From an uncultured Acidimicrobiales bacterium (GTDB lineage Bacteria; Actinomycetota; Acidimicrobiia; Acidimicrobiales; DATKAS01): a stretch of 64,000 bases of DNA. Positions 45,890 to 53,196 of this stretch are shown in pieces (position 1 is the first letter of the stretch; each line of letters opens with the position of its first letter). The notes under the pieces are model-generated. The model did no database searches. It saw only the letters and a program-made list of their open reading frames with translations, and was not told the DNA's origin. The translations under genes were made by a program, and so were the position numbers. The stretch is taken from contig CAWKBM010000002.1 of assembly GCA_963847855.1 (NCBI GenBank), positions 112,177 to 176,176 of the forward strand, written 5' to 3'.

Positions 45890-45917
45890 ATAATCCCAGG
45901 TCAGCGGCCGTAGTGAC

Positions 45918-46281
<364 letters not shown>

Positions 46282-46316: not shown

Positions 46317-47072
46317 TCAGACGTAAGCGGCGGTGCCGACGGCGAGGGTGACGTTACCGAAGGGCGAGGGGAACAGCTCCTCGTCCGGGATGACCGAAAC
46401 GAGGATGATCGAGTGGCGGCGTTCCACCGCGCCGACCGACTGGATCGTCTGGCGCAGGTCGGGGGTGGTGAACATCGGCACGAACACCTGATAGGTGCCT
46501 CCGGCCGTGTCTTCGAGCTCGAGGGCGAGGTTGACGACGTCGATCTCTTCCTTCACCGACGGCAGGATCGTGTCGACGACCTTCAGCTGGATGTACGGGT
46601 TCGCCATCGTGTACGGCTCGCCACCGGCTTCGGTCGTCGCAGCCGTGAACAGCTCGTTGTGCTGATGATGCTGATCGCGGAAGAGCTTCGCGGCGTCGGC
46701 GAGCGCGGGAGTGGTCAGGAGCCCCGAGGCCAACGCCTTCTCATAGGTCTCCACGGCGAGGATCTCGATCGACGATGCGGTGCGCAGCAACGTCACGTCG
46801 TTGACGGGAGGCGGAGCGATCGTCACCGTCGTCGGCGTCGCGTCGCCGCCTTCAGGCACCTGCGGCTTCGCTGAGTGATCCGCGCACGCGGCCAACGCCG
46901 CGGCCATCAGCCCACCACCTGCGATGAGCAGGCCCCGTCGATTGAACGAACCGTCGCCGCCAGCGAACCGCATGATCGCGTCGCGGAACGGACCCATGGA
47001 CTCGCGCTGCGCCTCTTCGGCGTCGCGCATCTGCCTGCGCAGCTCGTCACGGCCGATCCCCATGTCGCTCAT
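46317..47072 (-). CDS. Tat-signal ferritin-like domain (lipo)protein
   Basis: FNRRGLLIAGGGLMAAALAAC (twin-Arg plus lipobox). Four-helix di-iron-type ligand contexts: EILAVETYE, DQHHQHNE, LELEDTAGG, AVERRH. ATG 47072 overlaps the upstream stop (ATGA). Internal ATGs closer to the Tat motif are alternative starts. Confidence 0.7.
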   Translation of the reverse strand: MSDMGIGRDELRRQMRDAEEAQRESMGPFRDAIMRFAGGDGSFNRRGLLIAGGGLMAAALAACADHSAKPQVPEGGDATPTTVTIAPPPVNDVTLLRTASSIEILAVETYEKALASGLLTTPALADAAKLFRDQHHQHNELFTAATTEAGGEPYTMANPYIQLKVVDTILPSVKEEIDVVNLALELEDTAGGTYQVFVPMFTTPDLRQTIQSVGAVERRHSIILVSVIPDEELFPSPFGNVTLAVGTAAYV

Positions 47073-47695
47073 CCGAGCACCGGGAACTCGGCGGGCCGGA
47101 ACGCCCCGACGACCGACTCGAAGGCGGGGACGAAGGTGGCCGTGGGCAAGCTCGCCGCCGAGCCGAGCACGGTGGCGTGCTGCGCCTCGATCGAGAGCAC
47201 ACCTGAGGCGAAGCCCGCCGCTCTCGGCGCTTCGTAGGTGCCGCAGGCGAGCACGTAGGTCGACGCCGCTCTTGTCTCGAGATCGAAGAGGACATCGAAG
47301 AGGTCGTCGACGGTGCTGGCTGTGCGCACCCTGCCGGCGTAGGCGTTGACCATCTGTCCGTTCGTGCCGTTCACGGTGCTCGAGCCGAAGCCGCCGAGGG
47401 CTCCCGCGGCCACCGCGTGCTCGTCGTGGTGGTTCTGGAACTGCACGGCGTACGCCGTTTGCGCGTCATCGAAGAGCTTTTTGTCGAGGGCGAGGCCGTA
47501 GATCTCGACGAACGCCAGCTCGATAGAGCGGTGGAAGGCGGTGAGCTGAAGGTCCGCGGCCGAGAGGTTGCTGGCCGTGGACTGCGCCTGGGCGACGCCG
47601 GCGAACGCAGGGATGGCACCGATCGCCACCGCCGCGGCGCCGACTCCCGCACCGACCAGGAGGTGTCGTCTTGACGGATCCTGAGTTGAAGTCAT
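47069..47695 (-). CDS. Tat-signal ferritin-like domain protein
   Basis: SRRHLLVGAGVGAAAVAIG..AQA signal. Ligand contexts IELAFVEIYG, NHHDEHA, FDLETRAA, SIEAQHA. The start overlaps the cupredoxin stop (ATGA 47692-47695). Confidence 0.7.
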   Translation of the reverse strand: MTSTQDPSRRHLLVGAGVGAAAVAIGAIPAFAGVAQAQSTASNLSAADLQLTAFHRSIELAFVEIYGLALDKKLFDDAQTAYAVQFQNHHDEHAVAAGALGGFGSSTVNGTNGQMVNAYAGRVRTASTVDDLFDVLFDLETRAASTYVLACGTYEAPRAAGFASGVLSIEAQHATVLGSAASLPTATFVPAFESVVGAFRPAEFPVLG

Positions 47696-48183
47696 GAGAC
47701 GACGATGCTCCCTGTCATCGAGTTGTGGATGCCGCAGAAGTACTCGTAGGTGCCGGGCGTGTCGAAGGTGACCGTGTAGCTCTGGCCGACACCGATGGTG
47801 CCGTCACCGGGGAAGGGATCGCCCTTCGAGACGATCTGGTGGGTGACCGAGTCGTTGTTCGTCCACGTGACCTTCGTGCCCGTGGTGACGTCGATGTTCT
47901 GCGGATGGAACGCGAAGTCGACCGCGACGATCTCCGCCTGTCCCGAGGCCTTCGTGACCGTCGTCGTGGTGGATGCCGCCGTCGTGCTGGCGCTCACCGC
48001 GGCGGTCGTCGCAGCTGCGGCGGTGGTGGCCGCTCCGGCCGCAGCGGTCGTCGCGGCCGCCGCGGTGGTCGCTCCGCTCGCGGGCACGCCTTCGTCGCTC
48101 GGATCGTCTCCGCATGCAGCGAGGACGGTTGCCAGCACGAGAGCACTGCAGACCAGCAGGGCTCGGGCACGGCATCGGGTCAT
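47692..48183 (-). CDS. cupredoxin (amicyanin/plastocyanin-like blue copper) lipoprotein
   Basis: Lipobox VLAAC, a Thr/Ala-rich linker, then VTWTNNDSVTHQIV and YEYFCGIHNSMTG (Cys-x2-His-x2-Met type 1 Cu ligand spacing). Confidence 0.8.
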   Translation of the reverse strand: MTRCRARALLVCSALVLATVLAACGDDPSDEGVPASGATTAAAATTAAAGAATTAAAATTAAVSASTTAASTTTTVTKASGQAEIVAVDFAFHPQNIDVTTGTKVTWTNNDSVTHQIVSKGDPFPGDGTIGVGQSYTVTFDTPGTYEYFCGIHNSMTGSIVVS

Positions 48184-48210: not shown

Positions 48211-49657
48211 CTAGAAGTCGAGCGACGAGAGTTCCGAAACCCACCCCTCCGATCGGGAGCGAGCCTCGAGCCATCGTGCCCGGTCGAGCTTCCCGGCCGG
48301 CTCGATGACGGTACGTGGTCGCCAGGTCGCCGCGATGTCATCCATGCCCTTCCACGTGCCCGTGGCCAGCCCGGCCAGGAAGGCCGCGCCGAGGGTCGTG
48401 GCCTCGAGCACAGGCGAGACCTCGACCGGCCGCTGTGTGGCGTTGGCCAGAGCCCCGAGGAACGTCGGGTTCGCGGTCATGCCGCCGTCGACCCGGAGGT
48501 GGTCGATCGGGAGGCCCGTGTCGGTCTCGGCGGCCTCGACGAGGTCGGCCCCGCGCTGCGCGACTCCCTCGAGCACGGCCCGCACCAGATGGGCCCGGGT
48601 CGACCCTCGGGTGAGCCCGAAGAACGAGGAGCGGGCGCCGTAGTCCCAAACCGGCGTGCCGAGCCCGAGCAGCGCGGGCACGTACACGACACCGTCGGTG
48701 TCCGCACACTGTGAGGCGACGTCATGTGACGCGGCAACGCTGTCGATCACGCCGAGATCGTCGCGTAGCCATTCGACGTTGGAACCCGCGGTGAGCATGA
48801 TCGCTTCGACACCCCACGTGATCTCGCCGTCGCGTCTCCACGCTGCGATCGGGAAGGTGCCGCCCTCCCCGCGGCGCTCGAACGCCGGACGCTCGGGCAG
48901 CGAGGCACATGTCGAGCATGCCGCCGGTGCCGAACGTCGCCTTCGCGAGCCCGGGCAAGACGCAGCCCTGCCCGATGAGCGACGCCTGCTGGTCGCCCGC
49001 GATGCCGGCGATCGGAGGCGAGCCCGGCAGCGCGCTCGCATTCCCGACGACGCCGGTCGAGTCGACGATCTCCGGGAGCACCGCGCCCGGGATGCGGAGG
49101 GCCTCGAGGATGTGCTCGTCCCACCCCGTGCCGTCGGAGCGCACGAGGCCCGTGACGCCGACGTTCGACTGGTCGGTGACGTGCACGGCTCCCTCGGACA
49201 GCAGCCAGGCGATCCAGGTGTCGACGGTGCCGAACCGCAGGTCGGTGCGCATGCGTTCGGGGTCGACCGTGTCGAGCAGGAAGGCGAGCTTGGTGGCCGA
49301 CTGGTTCGGAGCGAACCGGAGACCGTCCGCAGCCAGCACGAGGCACATCCCGGCGGTGCGCAGATCCTGCCAGCCGATGCCAGGACCGACGGGCTTCCCC
49401 GTGTGCGCGTCCCACACGATCGTCGAGGCGCGTTGGTTGGCGATGCCGACGGCGTCGACCGGGCCACCCTCGTTCACGGCCGCTGTCGCGACCTCGAGCG
49501 CTGCGGCACCCATCTCGACCGCGTCGAACTCGACGAGGCCGGGGGAGGGGGAGGAGGGCAGCACCTCGCGGTGGTGGACGTGATCGACGGTGGCGTCCGG
49601 GTGCACGATCGCGGCGCGGACGCCACTCGTGCCGACATCGACGACGAGGATGCTCAT
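48211..49657 (-). CDS. FGGY-family carbohydrate kinase (glycerol-kinase-like); one frame break near 48900
   Basis: The N-terminal half (MSILVVDVGTSGVRAAIV..GIAGDQQASLIGQGC..ATFGTGGML) is at the end of the 981-aa ORF. The C-terminal half (..VYVPALLGLGTPVWD..HLRVDGGMTANP..) is in ORF 48211-49467. Confidence 0.8.
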
Positions 49658-50056
49658 CCGCTGGGCTCCGCCTCGTGTCGCAGTCGTCCGCCGATCAAGC
49701 CGCCCACCGTGCCGGCGACCATCGACAGCAGCGCGCTCGACAAGATGCGCGACCACGACACGTCCTCGCTCGTCGGCGAATCGACGCAGCACTCCGATGC
49801 CCTGCACGAGAGCGAAGGTGACGATCGCCGCCACGATGCCGTGCACCAGCGGCGCGTCGAGCTGCTGTCGTCGGGCCGCGACGGTTGCGCCGACGACCAG
49901 ACCCGCGAGCACGAGGATCGCGAGGAACGAGACGACGGCCGACGGGTTGTCGCTCGACGACCGGTCGTCGAGCGCCTGGCCGATGAGTGCGGCGGGCACG
50001 CAGATGATCAGCGCCACGACGATGCCGACGGCGAGTGCCGCGCGGTCGAGCTTCAC
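49654..50056 (-). CDS. small integral membrane protein (about 133 aa, 3-4 TM); frame break near 49770
   Basis: The GTG overlaps the oxidase stop (GTGA 50052-50056). VKLDRAALAVGIVVALIICVPAALIG..VVSFLAILVLAGLVVGATVAA..IVAAIVTFALVQGIGVL, then in the next frame ..ILSSALLSMVAGTVGGLIGGRL..*. The stop overlaps the kinase ATG (ATGA). Confidence 0.5.
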
Positions 50057-51556
50057 GATGCCTCCACGGGCCAGGGCACCTCGCCGAACGGTGAGGGCAG
50101 GCCGAGCTTCCCGGGGTTGAGGATGCCGTTCGGGTCGAGCGCGGCCTTCGTCGGCGCGCAGCACCTCGAACGCAGGCCCGAGCGCCTCGACCATGAAGCG
50201 GCTGCGGTTCAGCCCGACGCCGTGGTGGTGGGAGAGCGCACCCCCGTGCGCGAGCACGGCTCGTGTGCCTGCGTCCCATGCCGCGACGTAGAAGGCCTCG
50301 CGTTCGTCGGCCGGCGGGCGGCCCGCGAACGTGAAGTACAGGCATGCGCCGTCGGTGTACGCGTGCGACTGGTGCGCGGTGGCGGCAGCGGCATGGGGCA
50401 CCGCGGAGATCGCGGCTCGAGTGGCTTCGTAGATCTTCGGCAGGTCGCGCCACCGGCCAGCGATCTCCATCGTGTCGACGACGAAGCCCTTGCGAGTCAG
50501 TGCCTCCAACGCGCTCACGTCGTTGCGGTGGTGGAACCAGCGATCGACCAGCCCGACGTCGGCTCGCTCTCCTCCGACTGCATCGCACTCTTCGGCGACC
50601 ACGCGCATGACCGCATCGACGAGCGCAGCCTCTCCTTCGTCGTAGACGAGCAGGACATGACGGTCGCCGGTCTGGTAGCTGCGGTTGGCCTCGACGTCGT
50701 CGTAGAGACGCAAGACCGCGGGCGTGGCGCCCCGGCGAAGGATGCGACGGCACGCGTCGAGGCCCTCGACGAACGAGGAGAAGCTCCACGCATCGCGCCG
50801 TTCGGCGACCGGCGCGGGGTGCACGCGAAGGCGGGCGCCCGTGATCACGCCGAGCGTGCCCTCCGAGCCGACGAAGAGCTGGGTCAGGTCCGGGCCGGCG
50901 GCCGCACGCGGAGCGCCTCCCGTGCTGATCGCTCGTCCGTCTGCCAGGACGACGTCGAGACCGACGACCATGTCCTCGATCTTGCCGTACCGCGTCGACA
51001 GCTGACCGGCACCCCGGCACGCGAGCCATCCGCCGACCGTCGAGATCGCGACGGATTGCGGCCAGTGGCCCAAGGTCACGCCGTACGCCGACCGCAGCTC
51101 GGCCTCGAGCGGCTCGCCGAAGGTTCCCGGACGCACGTCGAGCACGAGCGACTGGTCATCGACATCGACGATGCCCGCGAGGCCGCACAGGTCGAGCACG
51201 ACGCCTCCATGCACCGGCACGCTCGCACCGCACACGCCACTGCGACCTGCGGCCGGAGTCAGCGGCACGAGGTCCGCGTTGCACACCGCGAGGACCGCGG
51301 CGACCTCTTCGACGCTCTCGGGCCGTGCGACCACCGAGGCGAGCCCCGGCACCTCGCCCTCGAGTGCCCACTGCATCGCGAGCGGCCACCAGTCACGGCT
51401 CGCCTCGGCGACCTCGTCGACGTCGGTGGCGACCGCCGCGCAGGCGCCTCTCAACCGAGCGAGCGTCGCGTCGCCGACCACGACTCGACGCGCCGCGAGA
51501 TGTGGTCGGGGGGCGACCTCGACGCGCTCCAGAGCGATCGGGCGGACGGGCCTCAT
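50052..51556 (-). CDS. FAD-linked oxidase (FAD_binding_4 / alkyl-DHAP-synthase-like); one extra base near 50135
   Basis: PESVEEVAAVLAVCNADLVPLTPAAGRSGVCGASVP..WPQS..GGWLACRGAGQLSTRYGKIEDMV..GSEGTLGVIT.. Ignoring one G restores the canonical tail LRATKAALDPNGILNPGKLGL. The ATG overlaps the glpD stop (ATGA 51553-51556). Confidence 0.8.
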
Positions 51557-53196
51557 GCGCCGATGGTCGCGTCGAGAGCCGTCTCGGGGAGCGCAGCAGC
51601 GTTTCGTTCTGCGGCGACCGAGTCGCGGAAGGCCGTCACCTGGCGTTGACGTTCGTCGTCCGACCATCCGAGCTCGGGGCCGATCAGCGCCGCGACGTCA
51701 TCGGCGACACGGGCAGCGTCGTCACGCGCGAGCAACCTCGCTCGCGTCCGCCGGCTCAGGATGTCGTCGAGCGTACGCGCCATCTCATGACGGACCGCGT
51801 GGATCGCCTCGGCGCGCACGTACGGCAGACCGGGCACGAGCGGCCGAGCCAAGTCGGGATCGCTGGCGGCGAGCAACGCGACGACTTCGGCTTCGGTGCC
51901 GAAGCGTGAGGCGAGGTGCGCGTCGAGACCCTGCCGGGGCCGATCGGCGTCGAAGCCGTCGCCTCCGAGGAGCACGACGTGCTTCGTGGAGCTGCGCCTG
52001 CGGATGTCGAGCATCTCGCCGACCTCGTCGACCGTGTCCGAGGCCATGCGGCGGTACGTCGTGAGCTTGCCGCCGGTGATGGTGACGAGCCCGCTCGGCG
52101 AGCGCCGCACCGCATGGCGTCGGGATAGATCCGCGGTGCGTTCGCTCGTAGCGTCGGTGACGAGCGGCCGGAGGCCGGCCCACGTGCCGAGGATGTCGGC
52201 CCGCGTGACCCCTGTGGTGACCGACGCGTTCAAGGCGCGGAGCACGTAGTCGATGTCTTCGGGCGTGCACTGCGGGTCGTCGAGCGGGCCGTCGTAGTCC
52301 GTGTCGGTCGTGCCCACGTACGCGAGGTCGCCCCACGGCACGACGAAGAGCGAGCGCCGGTCCTTCGGGACCGGGATCACCGCGGCGATGTCGTTCTGCG
52401 TCTTGTTCCAGGGCACCGTGATGTGGATGCCCTTCGCCGGCCGGATCGAGCGCGGGTGCACTCCCTCGTCGAGCGCGCGGAGGTCGTCGGCCCACACGCC
52501 GGTCGCGTTGACGACGACCTTCGCCCGGACCTCCCTGTCCTCGCCGTCCGCCTCGACGATCGCTCCGGCGGCCTTGCCGTCCGCGCCCTTCACCAGCCGC
52601 CGCACCGACACGTAGCTCGCGACAGCGGCACCGTGCGCCGCTGCGGTGCGAGCGATGGTGAGCGTGAGCCTCGCGTCGTCGGCCTGCGCGTCGTAGTACA
52701 GGTACGCGGACGCGAGGCGCTCTGCCGGCATCGTCGGCATGTGCGCGAGTGCCTCGGCCTTCGTGAGGCGCTTGTGCAGCTTCCCGATGCGCAGGCCTCC
52801 GGTCAGGTCGTACATCCACATCGCCGACCCGAGCGCGCGTGCCACCTTCGGATTGATCAAACCGTCGCGGGAGAAGATCGGGATGAGGAAGGGCAGCACC
52901 CGCACGAGGTGGGGGGCCGTCTTGCGGAGGCGCTGGCGTTCGGCGAGCGCCTCATAGACGAGGAGGTACTCCCGCTGCTGCAGGTATCGGAGCCCACCGT
53001 GCACGAGCTTCGATGACTTCGACGACGTGCCTGACGCAAAGTCGTGTCGCTCCACGAGTGCGGTGCGCAGCCCCCGGGTCGCCGCATCGAGCGCGACGCC
53101 CGCGCCCGTGATGCCGCCTCCGATGACCAGCACGTCGAAGTGCTCGTCACTCAACCGCGCCAGCGCCCGCGACCGGTCGAACGGAGGGAGCGACAT
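51553..53196 (-). CDS. glpD: FAD-dependent glycerol-3-phosphate dehydrogenase
   Basis: 547 aa, intact: FDVLVIGGGITGAGVALDAATRGL..FASGTSSKSSKLVHGGLRYL. Confidence 0.9.
   Translation of the reverse strand: MSLPPFDRSRALARLSDEHFDVLVIGGGITGAGVALDAATRGLRTALVERHDFASGTSSKSSKLVHGGLRYLQQREYLLVYEALAERQRLRKTAPHLVRVLPFLIPIFSRDGLINPKVARALGSAMWMYDLTGGLRIGKLHKRLTKAEALAHMPTMPAERLASAYLYYDAQADDARLTLTIARTAAAHGAAVASYVSVRRLVKGADGKAAGAIVEADGEDREVRAKVVVNATGVWADDLRALDEGVHPRSIRPAKGIHITVPWNKTQNDIAAVIPVPKDRRSLFVVPWGDLAYVGTTDTDYDGPLDDPQCTPEDIDYVLRALNASVTTGVTRADILGTWAGLRPLVTDATSERTADLSRRHAVRRSPSGLVTITGGKLTTYRRMASDTVDEVGEMLDIRRRSSTKHVVLLGGDGFDADRPRQGLDAHLASRFGTEAEVVALLAASDPDLARPLVPGLPYVRAEAIHAVRHEMARTLDDILSRRTRARLLARDDAARVADDVAALIGPELGWSDDERQRQVTAFRDSVAAERNAAALPETALDATIGA

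Follow-up and report, generated by a model that had tools for sequence, protein, structure and literature searches.

What would a blue copper protein and a pair of ferritin-like proteins be doing together outside the cytoplasm of an actinobacterium? The question is raised by three adjacent genes, here named cup, ferA and ferB, on a stretch of 64,000 nucleotides from an uncultured Acidimicrobiales bacterium (assembly GCA_963847855.1, contig CAWKBM010000002.1, positions 112,177 to 176,176; this whole stretch is called the window below, with positions counted from its first letter). Each was identified as an open reading frame (ORF) with Pfam matches on the minus strand, and they encode a lipoprotein cupredoxin of 163 amino acids (aa) with a type-1 copper site (cup, 47692..48183), a soluble Ferritin_2 protein of 208 aa with a twin-arginine translocation (Tat) signal (ferA, 47069..47695) and a Tat-signal Ferritin_2 lipoprotein of 251 aa (ferB, 46317..47072). 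The explanation that accounts best for the locus overall, to which a probability of roughly 0.45 is given here, is that of an envelope redox module in which electrons would run from a carrier to a dimetal site and on to an oxidant, induced in many lineages by sigma factors of the extracytoplasmic function (ECF) group.

Products of the cup-ferA-ferB operon

As the preliminary description of this DNA had stated, the three genes are joined by stop/start ATGA overlaps, at 47692-47695 between cup and ferA and at 47069-47072 between ferA and ferB, and all three ORFs are intact. ferB also has an alternative start at M4 (ATG 47061-47063), 9 nt downstream, which is the one used by gene callers in the identical protein P0001 (248 aa); coupling is tight with either start. 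A Shine-Dalgarno sequence (AAGGAG) is present 6 nt 5′ of the cup ATG, and cup starts 27 nt past the stop of a frameshifted glycerol kinase gene (glpK). Related operons were collected as 80 loci from a scan of one genome per species, nearly all belonging to the Acidimicrobiia and with sampling biased towards query-like sequences; these provided 64 homologues of cup, 75 of ferA and 89 of ferB for alignment, and one of them (L001) has 94-99% identity to the window over the three proteins. The family matches given below, the Tat-model score of ferA and the same order across the 80 loci indicate that cup, ferA and ferB are genuine genes and not high-GC noise.

The cup product begins with a signal peptide ending in the lipobox L-A-A-C (Cys24; 48112..48183, minus strand; MTRCRARALLVCSALVLATVLAAC), which is predicted to be of the Sec/SPII (signal peptidase II) type as it is without a twin-arginine motif; a strict form of the lipobox pattern matches 37 of 63 homologues. 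An Ala/Thr-rich low-complexity linker of about 55 residues (approximately residues 25-80; 47944..48111, minus strand) leads from the lipid anchor to the domain, which according to Pfam starts at about residue 67-85. This domain matches both Cupredoxin_1 (PF13473; E=3e-13, 50.1 bits, cut-off 27) and Copper-bind (PF00127; E=1e-12, 48.6 bits, cut-off 21.2), as well as 43 PDB cupredoxin sequences at E<=0.01, the best of these being the C-terminal cupredoxin domain of NirK, plastocyanins and amicyanins. The amicyanin-type ligand spacing noted previously in the segments NNDSVTHQIV and FCGIHNSMTG is present, the predicted type-1 copper ligands being H115, C150, H153 and M156 with the loop C-x2-H-x2-M, as in amicyanin. 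In the alignments with plastocyanin and the NirK domain all four coincide with ligands, and among the 64 homologues they are conserved in 64, 62, 60 and 59, respectively. Cup thereby has the appearance of a type-1 (blue) copper cupredoxin with a full predicted site. It scores far below the NCBIfam equivalog cut-offs for amicyanin (TIGR02657, 41 vs 110.2 bits), plastocyanin (TIGR02656, 44.8 vs 87.85) and halocyanin (TIGR03102, 45 vs 93.8). An assignment of cup as CopI was rejected, the match (E=0.055) being confined to the low-complexity linker.

The Tat signal peptide of ferA (47585..47695, minus strand) consists of the motif S-R-R-H-L-L (R9R10), a hydrophobic region and an A-Q-A cleavage motif at residues 35-37, and was recognised by the NCBIfam model TAT_signal_seq (TIGR01409; 17.8 bits, cut-off 16.7) and by Pfam TAT_signal (E=4e-4). 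Among its homologues the RR motif occurs in 62 of 73 and a lipobox in none. With ferB, the twin-arginine motif N-R-R-G-L-L (R45R46) is followed by a hydrophobic region and the lipobox L-A-A-C (Cys63; 46884..46940, minus strand), and a Pro/Thr-rich linker lies between the lipobox and the ferritin-like domain. No Tat hidden Markov model (HMM) match was obtained for ferB itself, and its signal was identified by conservation: R45/R46 are kept in 80-83 of the 89 homologues and C63 in 81, while a pattern scan gave RR in 78/85 and a lipobox in 73/85. Both twin-arginine signals and the second lipobox that had been described earlier are hence present and conserved, and ferA and ferB are predicted to be Tat-exported, the latter as a lipoprotein. 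ferB also has a conserved N-terminal extension before its Tat motif (residues 1-44, DELRRQ...; 46941..47072, minus strand), with a predicted helix at residues 8-37 and with R12 and R13 kept in 76-80 of the 89 homologues. An extension of this type is found on both Streptomycetaceae homologues discussed below, whereas ferA and the proteobacterial proteins lack it; a role in proofreading or in the binding of a Tat chaperone is conceivable.

Both proteins exceed the cut-off of Ferritin_2 (PF13668, 24.7 bits), ferA with 30.6 bits (E=4e-7) and ferB with 44.6 bits (E=2e-11), such that the HMM searches bear out the family assignments of the preliminary description for all three genes; neither matches DUF4439 (PF14530) at E<=1. 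They are distant paralogs with 24% identity. AlphaFold2 (AF2) models of ferA and ferB (predicted local distance difference test scores of 83 and 73, respectively) have four long helices and a crossover helix, with the ligands placed on helices A-D. The four-helix-bundle domain of ferB covers residues 92-226 (46395..46799, minus strand; Pfam residues 91-224), its modelled helices being 92-116, 122-148, 176-200 and 204-226. Almost all Foldseek matches to the models belong to the ferritin superfamily, with weak E-values; the top match for ferB is Rv2844 (PDB 2ib0) with a target-normalised TM-score of 0.85, and the remaining ones (Dps, bacterioferritin, aldehyde-deformylating oxygenase and CopM) are weak and generic. 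Single-sequence searches of the PDB (phmmer) with ferA and ferB gave no meaningful match. Apparent ferA-ferB fusions (P0066, 463 aa; P0009, 408 aa; P0196 and P0212), considered as Rosetta-stone evidence for a heterodimer, were rejected as frameshift artefacts because the text between their domains is out of frame.

The predicted metal site is where the two proteins depart from what had been described. The ligand set of ferA is E59, H90-x2-H93 (plus H89), E140 and E170-x2-H173, kept in 72-75 of the 75 homologues, and that of ferB is E103, H135-x2-H138, E187 and E217-x2-H220, kept in 83-86 of 89, the six ligands of either protein being retained in at least 93% of homologues. A Tyr follows the Glu of helix A and that of helix C at a distance of seven residues (E-x6-Y; E103..Y110 and E187..Y194 in ferB), giving a putative site of three Glu and three His with the pattern E-x6-Y / HxxH / E-x6-Y / ExxH. 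The canonical diiron pattern (E/ExxH/E/ExxH) is thus followed on helices A, C and D, while helix B has HxxH in place of ExxH. The E/ExxH-type contexts of the preliminary description, for example SIEAQHA (E170/H173 of ferA) and AVERRH (E217/H220 of ferB), therefore stand for helices A, C and D and fail for helix B. Among the 143 best representatives of the family (up to 400 residues) 124 have the full HxxH pattern, only 2 have the canonical one, and 138 have RR near the N-terminus.

Inheritance, carrier exchange and control

The linkage of the three genes is not particular to the window. Exactly cup-ferA-ferB is present in 46 of the 80 loci and four more add a second cup, while by tblastn cup lies directly upstream in about 61 of the approximately 75 loci with enough upstream DNA. 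Cup, ferA and ferB are coupled and co-inherited, and, as no further neighbouring gene is conserved across the 80 loci, the trio can be considered as the unit of inheritance; glycerol-metabolism genes and the RNase P RNA gene (rnpB) flank it in closer relatives only. Independent evidence for functional linkage comes from the Streptomycetaceae plasmid CP108401, on which a ferritin-like gene, a Tat-lipoprotein ferritin-like gene and a lipoprotein cupredoxin gene follow each other with the same motifs, in another order. Ten of the loci (L014, L029, L030, L047, L051, L054, L058, L060, L068 and L077) have a gene for a cupredoxin-fused multicopper oxidase of about 455 aa (N-terminal cupredoxin, Cu-oxidase_3 and Cu-oxidase_2) approximately 2 kb 3′ of ferB. 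Two loci with Acidimicrobiia-type ferA-ferB (L023 and L032) come from metagenome-assembled genomes (MAGs) labelled as Burkholderiales and Bifidobacterium breve and are probably mis-binned or mislabelled.

The family extends well beyond the Acidimicrobiia. In an exhaustive profile search the number of cluster representatives was 438 at E<1e-30, rising to 2021 at E<1e-10 and to 4318 at E<1e-3. An unusual poly-ferritin-like architecture was seen in P0187 (1273 aa), which has 6-8 tandem Ferritin_2 domains (Pfam E=9e-227). In Paraburkholderia, Variovorax and Cupriavidus there is a single Tat-signal homologue with the same E/HxxH/E/ExxH set, and the next gene downstream encodes a class I cytochrome c with a CxxCH motif. 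Counted over 80 betaproteobacterial metagenome loci (L091-L170), the cytochrome c is directly downstream in 61 of the 62 that have room for it. Cupredoxins and small class I cytochromes c are the classic interchangeable one-electron carriers of the periplasm. That one takes the place of the other beside the same kind of protein is what speaks most strongly for the ferritin-like protein being a redox enzyme which exchanges electrons with its neighbour.

The Comamonadaceae-type operon (L084 4204-5932; L091-L170) is stable in its composition of ECF sigma factor, Tat-signal ferritin-like protein and CycA-like cytochrome c. Its sigma factor, which carries a C-terminal extension, belongs to the NCBIfam PRK11922 type, and no anti-sigma factor adjoins it. 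The sigma gene is directly upstream in 40 of 54 betaproteobacterial loci, and besides it and the cytochrome c these loci have no other consistent neighbour. In Acidithiobacillus the order is ECF sigma, RskA-type anti-sigma and ferritin-like gene, and in Nostoc it is ECF sigma, ChrR anti-sigma and ferritin-like gene. Within the Acidimicrobiia, a SigK-like ECF sigma factor and an anti-sigma factor with an RskA_C domain adjoin the operon in 15-16 loci, mostly in divergent orientation. In all ten loci with a sigma gene divergent from cup (L020, L021, L033, L034, L036, L039, L040, L042, L065 and L067), the promoter-like motif CATCC-N16-17-CGTA faces cup within the short intergenic region, at about 1140-1600 nt upstream of ferB, and the sigma gene is faced by a second copy or a near-copy, exact in eight. 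With a background of 2.3e-5 per position, approximately 0.03 chance matches would be expected. Four further loci have the motif without an adjacent sigma gene, three of them (L022, L024 and L072) at the same position directly upstream of cup, and the fourth (L017), a locus with no cup, upstream of ferA. A different regulator was observed on an actinobacterial metagenome contig (L088 933-3053), where a gene for a FUR-family protein is divergent from an overlapping pair of Ferritin_2 genes; actinobacterial PerR/FurA-type regulators adjoin catalase and peroxidase genes in a similar way.

Turning to the surroundings of the operon in the window, no SigK-like, RskA-like or multicopper oxidase gene was found there, and CATCC-N15-18-CGTA has just two matches across the window (11027 and 22770), which are far from the operon and at chance level. 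Visual inspection showed a copy of the SigK-type motif with one mismatch within glpK, at a distance of about 130 nt from cup on its upstream side. The rnpB gene (45916..46279, minus strand; Rfam RF00010, 231 bits; bacterial class A) is on the same strand as ferB and lies 37 nt past its stop; no terminator-like site was found in the gap, and co-transcription with the operon, or maturation of the RNA from the operon transcript, may occur. The rnpB gene is a neighbour standing outside the cup-ferA-ferB module, and for 20 of the 80 loci the same adjacency can be deduced, since a conserved shadow ORF occupies the position of rnpB directly 3′ of ferB. On the other side, glpK, which precedes cup, is spread over two reading frames near 48900 (region 48211-51667, minus strand), and the FAD (flavin adenine dinucleotide)-linked oxidase upstream of this has lost its final 20 or so residues near 50129, as judged by tblastn against the intact proteins of L003. 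Either the long-read MAG has indel errors at these places, or the two genes are pseudogenes.

Proposed function and competing explanations

Tat export is typical of proteins that acquire their cofactor in the cytoplasm. FerA and ferB would fold there and load a redox-active metal pair (Fe and/or Mn), a step which would explain their use of the Tat system. They would then be exported as a heterodimer tethered to the membrane by ferB, a pairing suggested by analogy with two ferritin-like systems discussed below, the dimeric FeMP proteins and the predicted ML1560/ML1561 pair. Cup, on its own flexible linker, would pass electrons one at a time between the dimetal sites and the respiratory chain, and the flow from carrier to dimetal site to oxidant would result in the reduction of peroxide or oxygen species in the cell envelope. 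In many lineages the module would be switched on by an envelope-stress ECF sigma factor. That ferA and ferB form a redox enzyme with a dedicated carrier outside the cytoplasm is probable. The oxidant-reducing direction in particular is proposed more tentatively; it is favoured because of the ECF sigma/RskA/ChrR control and the precedent of rubrerythrin, which is a diiron peroxidase with a high-potential site. The preliminary description had suggested a Cu/Fe redox module with its own carrier, either a ferroxidase or an oxidant-detoxifying system. The carrier has gained support from its replacement by cytochrome c in Betaproteobacteria, the canonical E/ExxH diiron site was not borne out, and between ferroxidase and detoxification sequence alone does not separate.

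A number of observations weigh against this proposal. The metal-bridging Glu which canonical diiron sites have on helix B is replaced here by His, and the site may for this reason be non-dinuclear or non-iron. The only biochemically characterised members of PF13668 are the Zn/Mg metabolite phosphatases RvFeMP-1 from a tardigrade (PDB 8kce) and DRB0118 from Deinococcus radiodurans, both dimeric (PMC11616004) and referred to here as FeMP proteins. Rv2844, a DUF4439 protein and the best structural neighbour, has also been given a non-redox role, since the adjacent ML1560/ML1561 (Rv2843/Rv2844), of which Rv2843 is a Tat substrate, are proposed in a preprint of July 2026 to bind and activate the DD-carboxypeptidase DacB (10.64898/2026.07.15.738315). 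The carrier is not universal either: in about 15 of the 80 loci ferA-ferB stand without a cupredoxin or CxxCH (cytochrome c) protein within 5 kb, and the homologues in Ralstonia, Acidithiobacillus and Nostoc are without an adjacent carrier. Moreover, the betaproteobacterial loci are close kin (73-89% identity), and the 61 of 62 represent few independent events. In the window itself, no ECF sigma, RskA or SigK-type promoter is present near the operon.

Several of these points lead to explanations of their own. The flow could be reversed, with ferA and ferB oxidising extracytoplasmic Fe(II), Mn(II) or a small organic reductant and the electrons passing through cupredoxin or cytochrome c to a terminal oxidase, in the manner of methylamine dehydrogenase with amicyanin or of a ferroxidase that uses a protein acceptor. 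The amicyanin-type spacing of the copper loop would suit this, as would a carrier encoded inside the operon of its enzyme, which is known from the mau cluster; ferroxidase centres have the same ferritin fold and E-x6-Y motifs, a FUR-family regulator adjoins one ferritin-like pair, and the multicopper oxidase is found downstream in 10 loci. However, there is no conserved metal permease or transporter nearby, the hosts are mostly heterotrophic soil and freshwater Acidimicrobiia, the ECF sigma/RskA/ChrR control is better suited to a stress response than to energy metabolism, and Tat export indicates a stable cofactor and not substrate iron, all of which makes the reversed direction rather doubtful. 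The multicopper oxidase has equally been counted towards copper handling, whereby His-rich bundles would bind or buffer envelope copper and the cupredoxin, sometimes with the multicopper oxidase, would oxidise Cu(I) for resistance or delivery. The HxxH motif, the appearance of the four-helix-bundle copper-binding protein CopM among the weak structural matches and the fact that some copper proteins are Tat substrates are consistent with such a role, which is nevertheless very unlikely: the match to CopM (E about 0.1) is no better than that to Dps or bacterioferritin, the one to CopI is non-significant and falls on the linker, the ligand geometry with its three Glu follows the ferritin dimetal pattern, genes for CopA, CsoR and CopZ are not linked, and copper handling has no place for the cytochrome c partner of the Betaproteobacteria.

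The remaining two alternatives follow from the nearest described relatives. FerA and ferB might be a non-catalytic envelope heterodimer that regulates another envelope enzyme, as proposed for ML1560/ML1561 on DacB. Here there is the same architecture of two adjacent paralogous Tat-exported ferritin-like genes in Actinobacteria, together with the Foldseek match of the ferB model to Rv2844; a cross-phylum profile also reaches Rv2844 at E=3e-4, and proteobacterial and Nostoc homologues match Pfam DUF4439 (E=5e-13 and 6e-11). Against these similarities, ferA and ferB themselves lack that DUF4439 match and keep their six ligands to the degree stated above, whereas in Rv2844 the aligned positions form a degenerate set (E, H-x-H, E, E..M); with no peptidoglycan enzyme as a conserved neighbour and the linkage to electron carriers left unexplained, a regulatory role is improbable, if slightly less so than copper handling. 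Hydrolysis by Zn/Mg metabolite phosphatases like RvFeMP-1 and DRB0118, with the cupredoxin as a bystander, would in turn rest on the common family PF13668, on profiles that reach PDB 8kce at E=9e-4 and E=6e-8, and on the activity demonstrated for the tardigrade and Deinococcus members (PMC11616004). The FeMP ligands are E51, E90, H93, E132, D135 and D162 (E / ExxH / ExxD / D) (PMC11616004), a set that is not found in ferA and ferB, where helix B has HxxH and the +3 position of helix C is Ala (the conserved A190 in ferB) in place of Asp. The similarity in sequence is marginal, with phmmer giving no PDB match for either single protein, and the linkage to cupredoxin or cytochrome c over two phyla is hard to reconcile with a hydrolase; this last explanation is the most improbable of all.

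The electron-carrying module accordingly remains the preferred account, in the form of a ferritin-superfamily dimetal protein with an unusual ligand set, location and partner. As had been supposed, no characterised example was found, the literature search giving no description of the trio or of the sigma/ferritin-like/cytochrome c operon. To our knowledge, ferritin-superfamily dimetal enzymes come almost entirely from the cytoplasm, and an exported clade with another ligand set and its own carrier would span hundreds to thousands of sequence clusters in Actinobacteria, Betaproteobacteria and Cyanobacteria. A possible, if speculative, extension is that these proteins are a new class of Tat-exported dimetal oxidoreductase with a ferritin fold and a site of three His and three Glu, which is connected to the respiratory chain by a cupredoxin in Actinobacteria or a cytochrome c in Betaproteobacteria and which is ECF-induced for the removal of oxidants from the envelope. 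If this is true, it would add a new type of enzyme to envelope redox and stress biology, would supply a function for many genes so far annotated with no more than 'ferritin-like domain-containing protein' and would provide ECF sigma systems of the RskA, ChrR and PRK11922 types with a defined target. Direct testing is feasible, as homologous operons are present in culturable Variovorax, Cupriavidus and Paraburkholderia and in a Streptomycetaceae strain.

Comparison with known systems

The FeMP phosphatases share with ferA and ferB the family PF13668, the simplest four-helix ferritin fold with a crossover linker and the E-x6-Y motif on helices A and C, and ferA and ferB are predicted to resemble them further in forming dimers, in having a dinuclear site to which all four helices contribute and in being linked to stress. 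They differ in having a carboxylate-rich Zn/Mg site which hydrolyses phosphate esters, where ferA and ferB have E, HxxH, E and ExxH and are a paralog pair with predicted Tat export, one of them with a predicted lipid anchor, that is linked to one-electron carriers. The architecture of Rv2843/Rv2844 is strikingly similar, also consisting of two adjacent paralogous ferritin-like genes in Actinobacteria with Tat export to the envelope; the ligand set of Rv2844 is however incomplete and the pair has no cupredoxin partner. The control of the operon likewise has a mycobacterial counterpart in SigK-RskA, which resembles the pair divergent from the operon in 15-16 related loci with a shared promoter-like motif facing both ways, although this pair is absent from the window. 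The known mycobacterial SigK regulon (mpt70, mpt83 and dipZ) holds no ferritin-like genes.

Cup itself is comparable to amicyanin with its methylamine dehydrogenase, to plastocyanin and to the C-terminal domain of NirK (PDB 9cck) by its H...C-x2-H-x2-M type-1 copper site and its small Greek-key domain. As with mauC for amicyanin, the carrier is encoded in the operon of its partner enzyme, which in the case of cup is a presumed one. Cup differs in being lipid-anchored through a lipoprotein signal, in its long Ala/Thr linker and in having a ferritin-like pair as its presumed partner instead of a quinoprotein.

For the ferritin-like proteins, the model of the proposed function is the peroxidase chemistry of rubrerythrin. 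Rubrerythrin, erythrin and bacterioferritin are four-helix bundles with an internal two-fold symmetry, E-x6-Y on helices A and C and ExxH on helix D, and in rubrerythrin and bacterioferritin electrons are delivered to the site from a one-electron centre, which is a rubredoxin domain or a haem. These proteins are cytoplasmic and have the bridging Glu on helix B (ExxH), whereas ferA and ferB are predicted to be exported, have His at this position and would receive electrons from a separate cupredoxin or cytochrome c, and their matches to rubrerythrin and bacterioferritin in sequence and structure are weak. With the dihaem cytochrome c peroxidase CcpA, the analogy would be one of function only, the fold and cofactor being unrelated (haem as opposed to a dimetal-carboxylate site) with no homology. 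CcpA is an envelope oxidant reductase that is fed by cytochrome c, azurin or pseudoazurin, such that cupredoxin and cytochrome c are mutually replaceable as its donors, and the class of enzyme tentatively proposed here would in effect be a non-haem counterpart of it.

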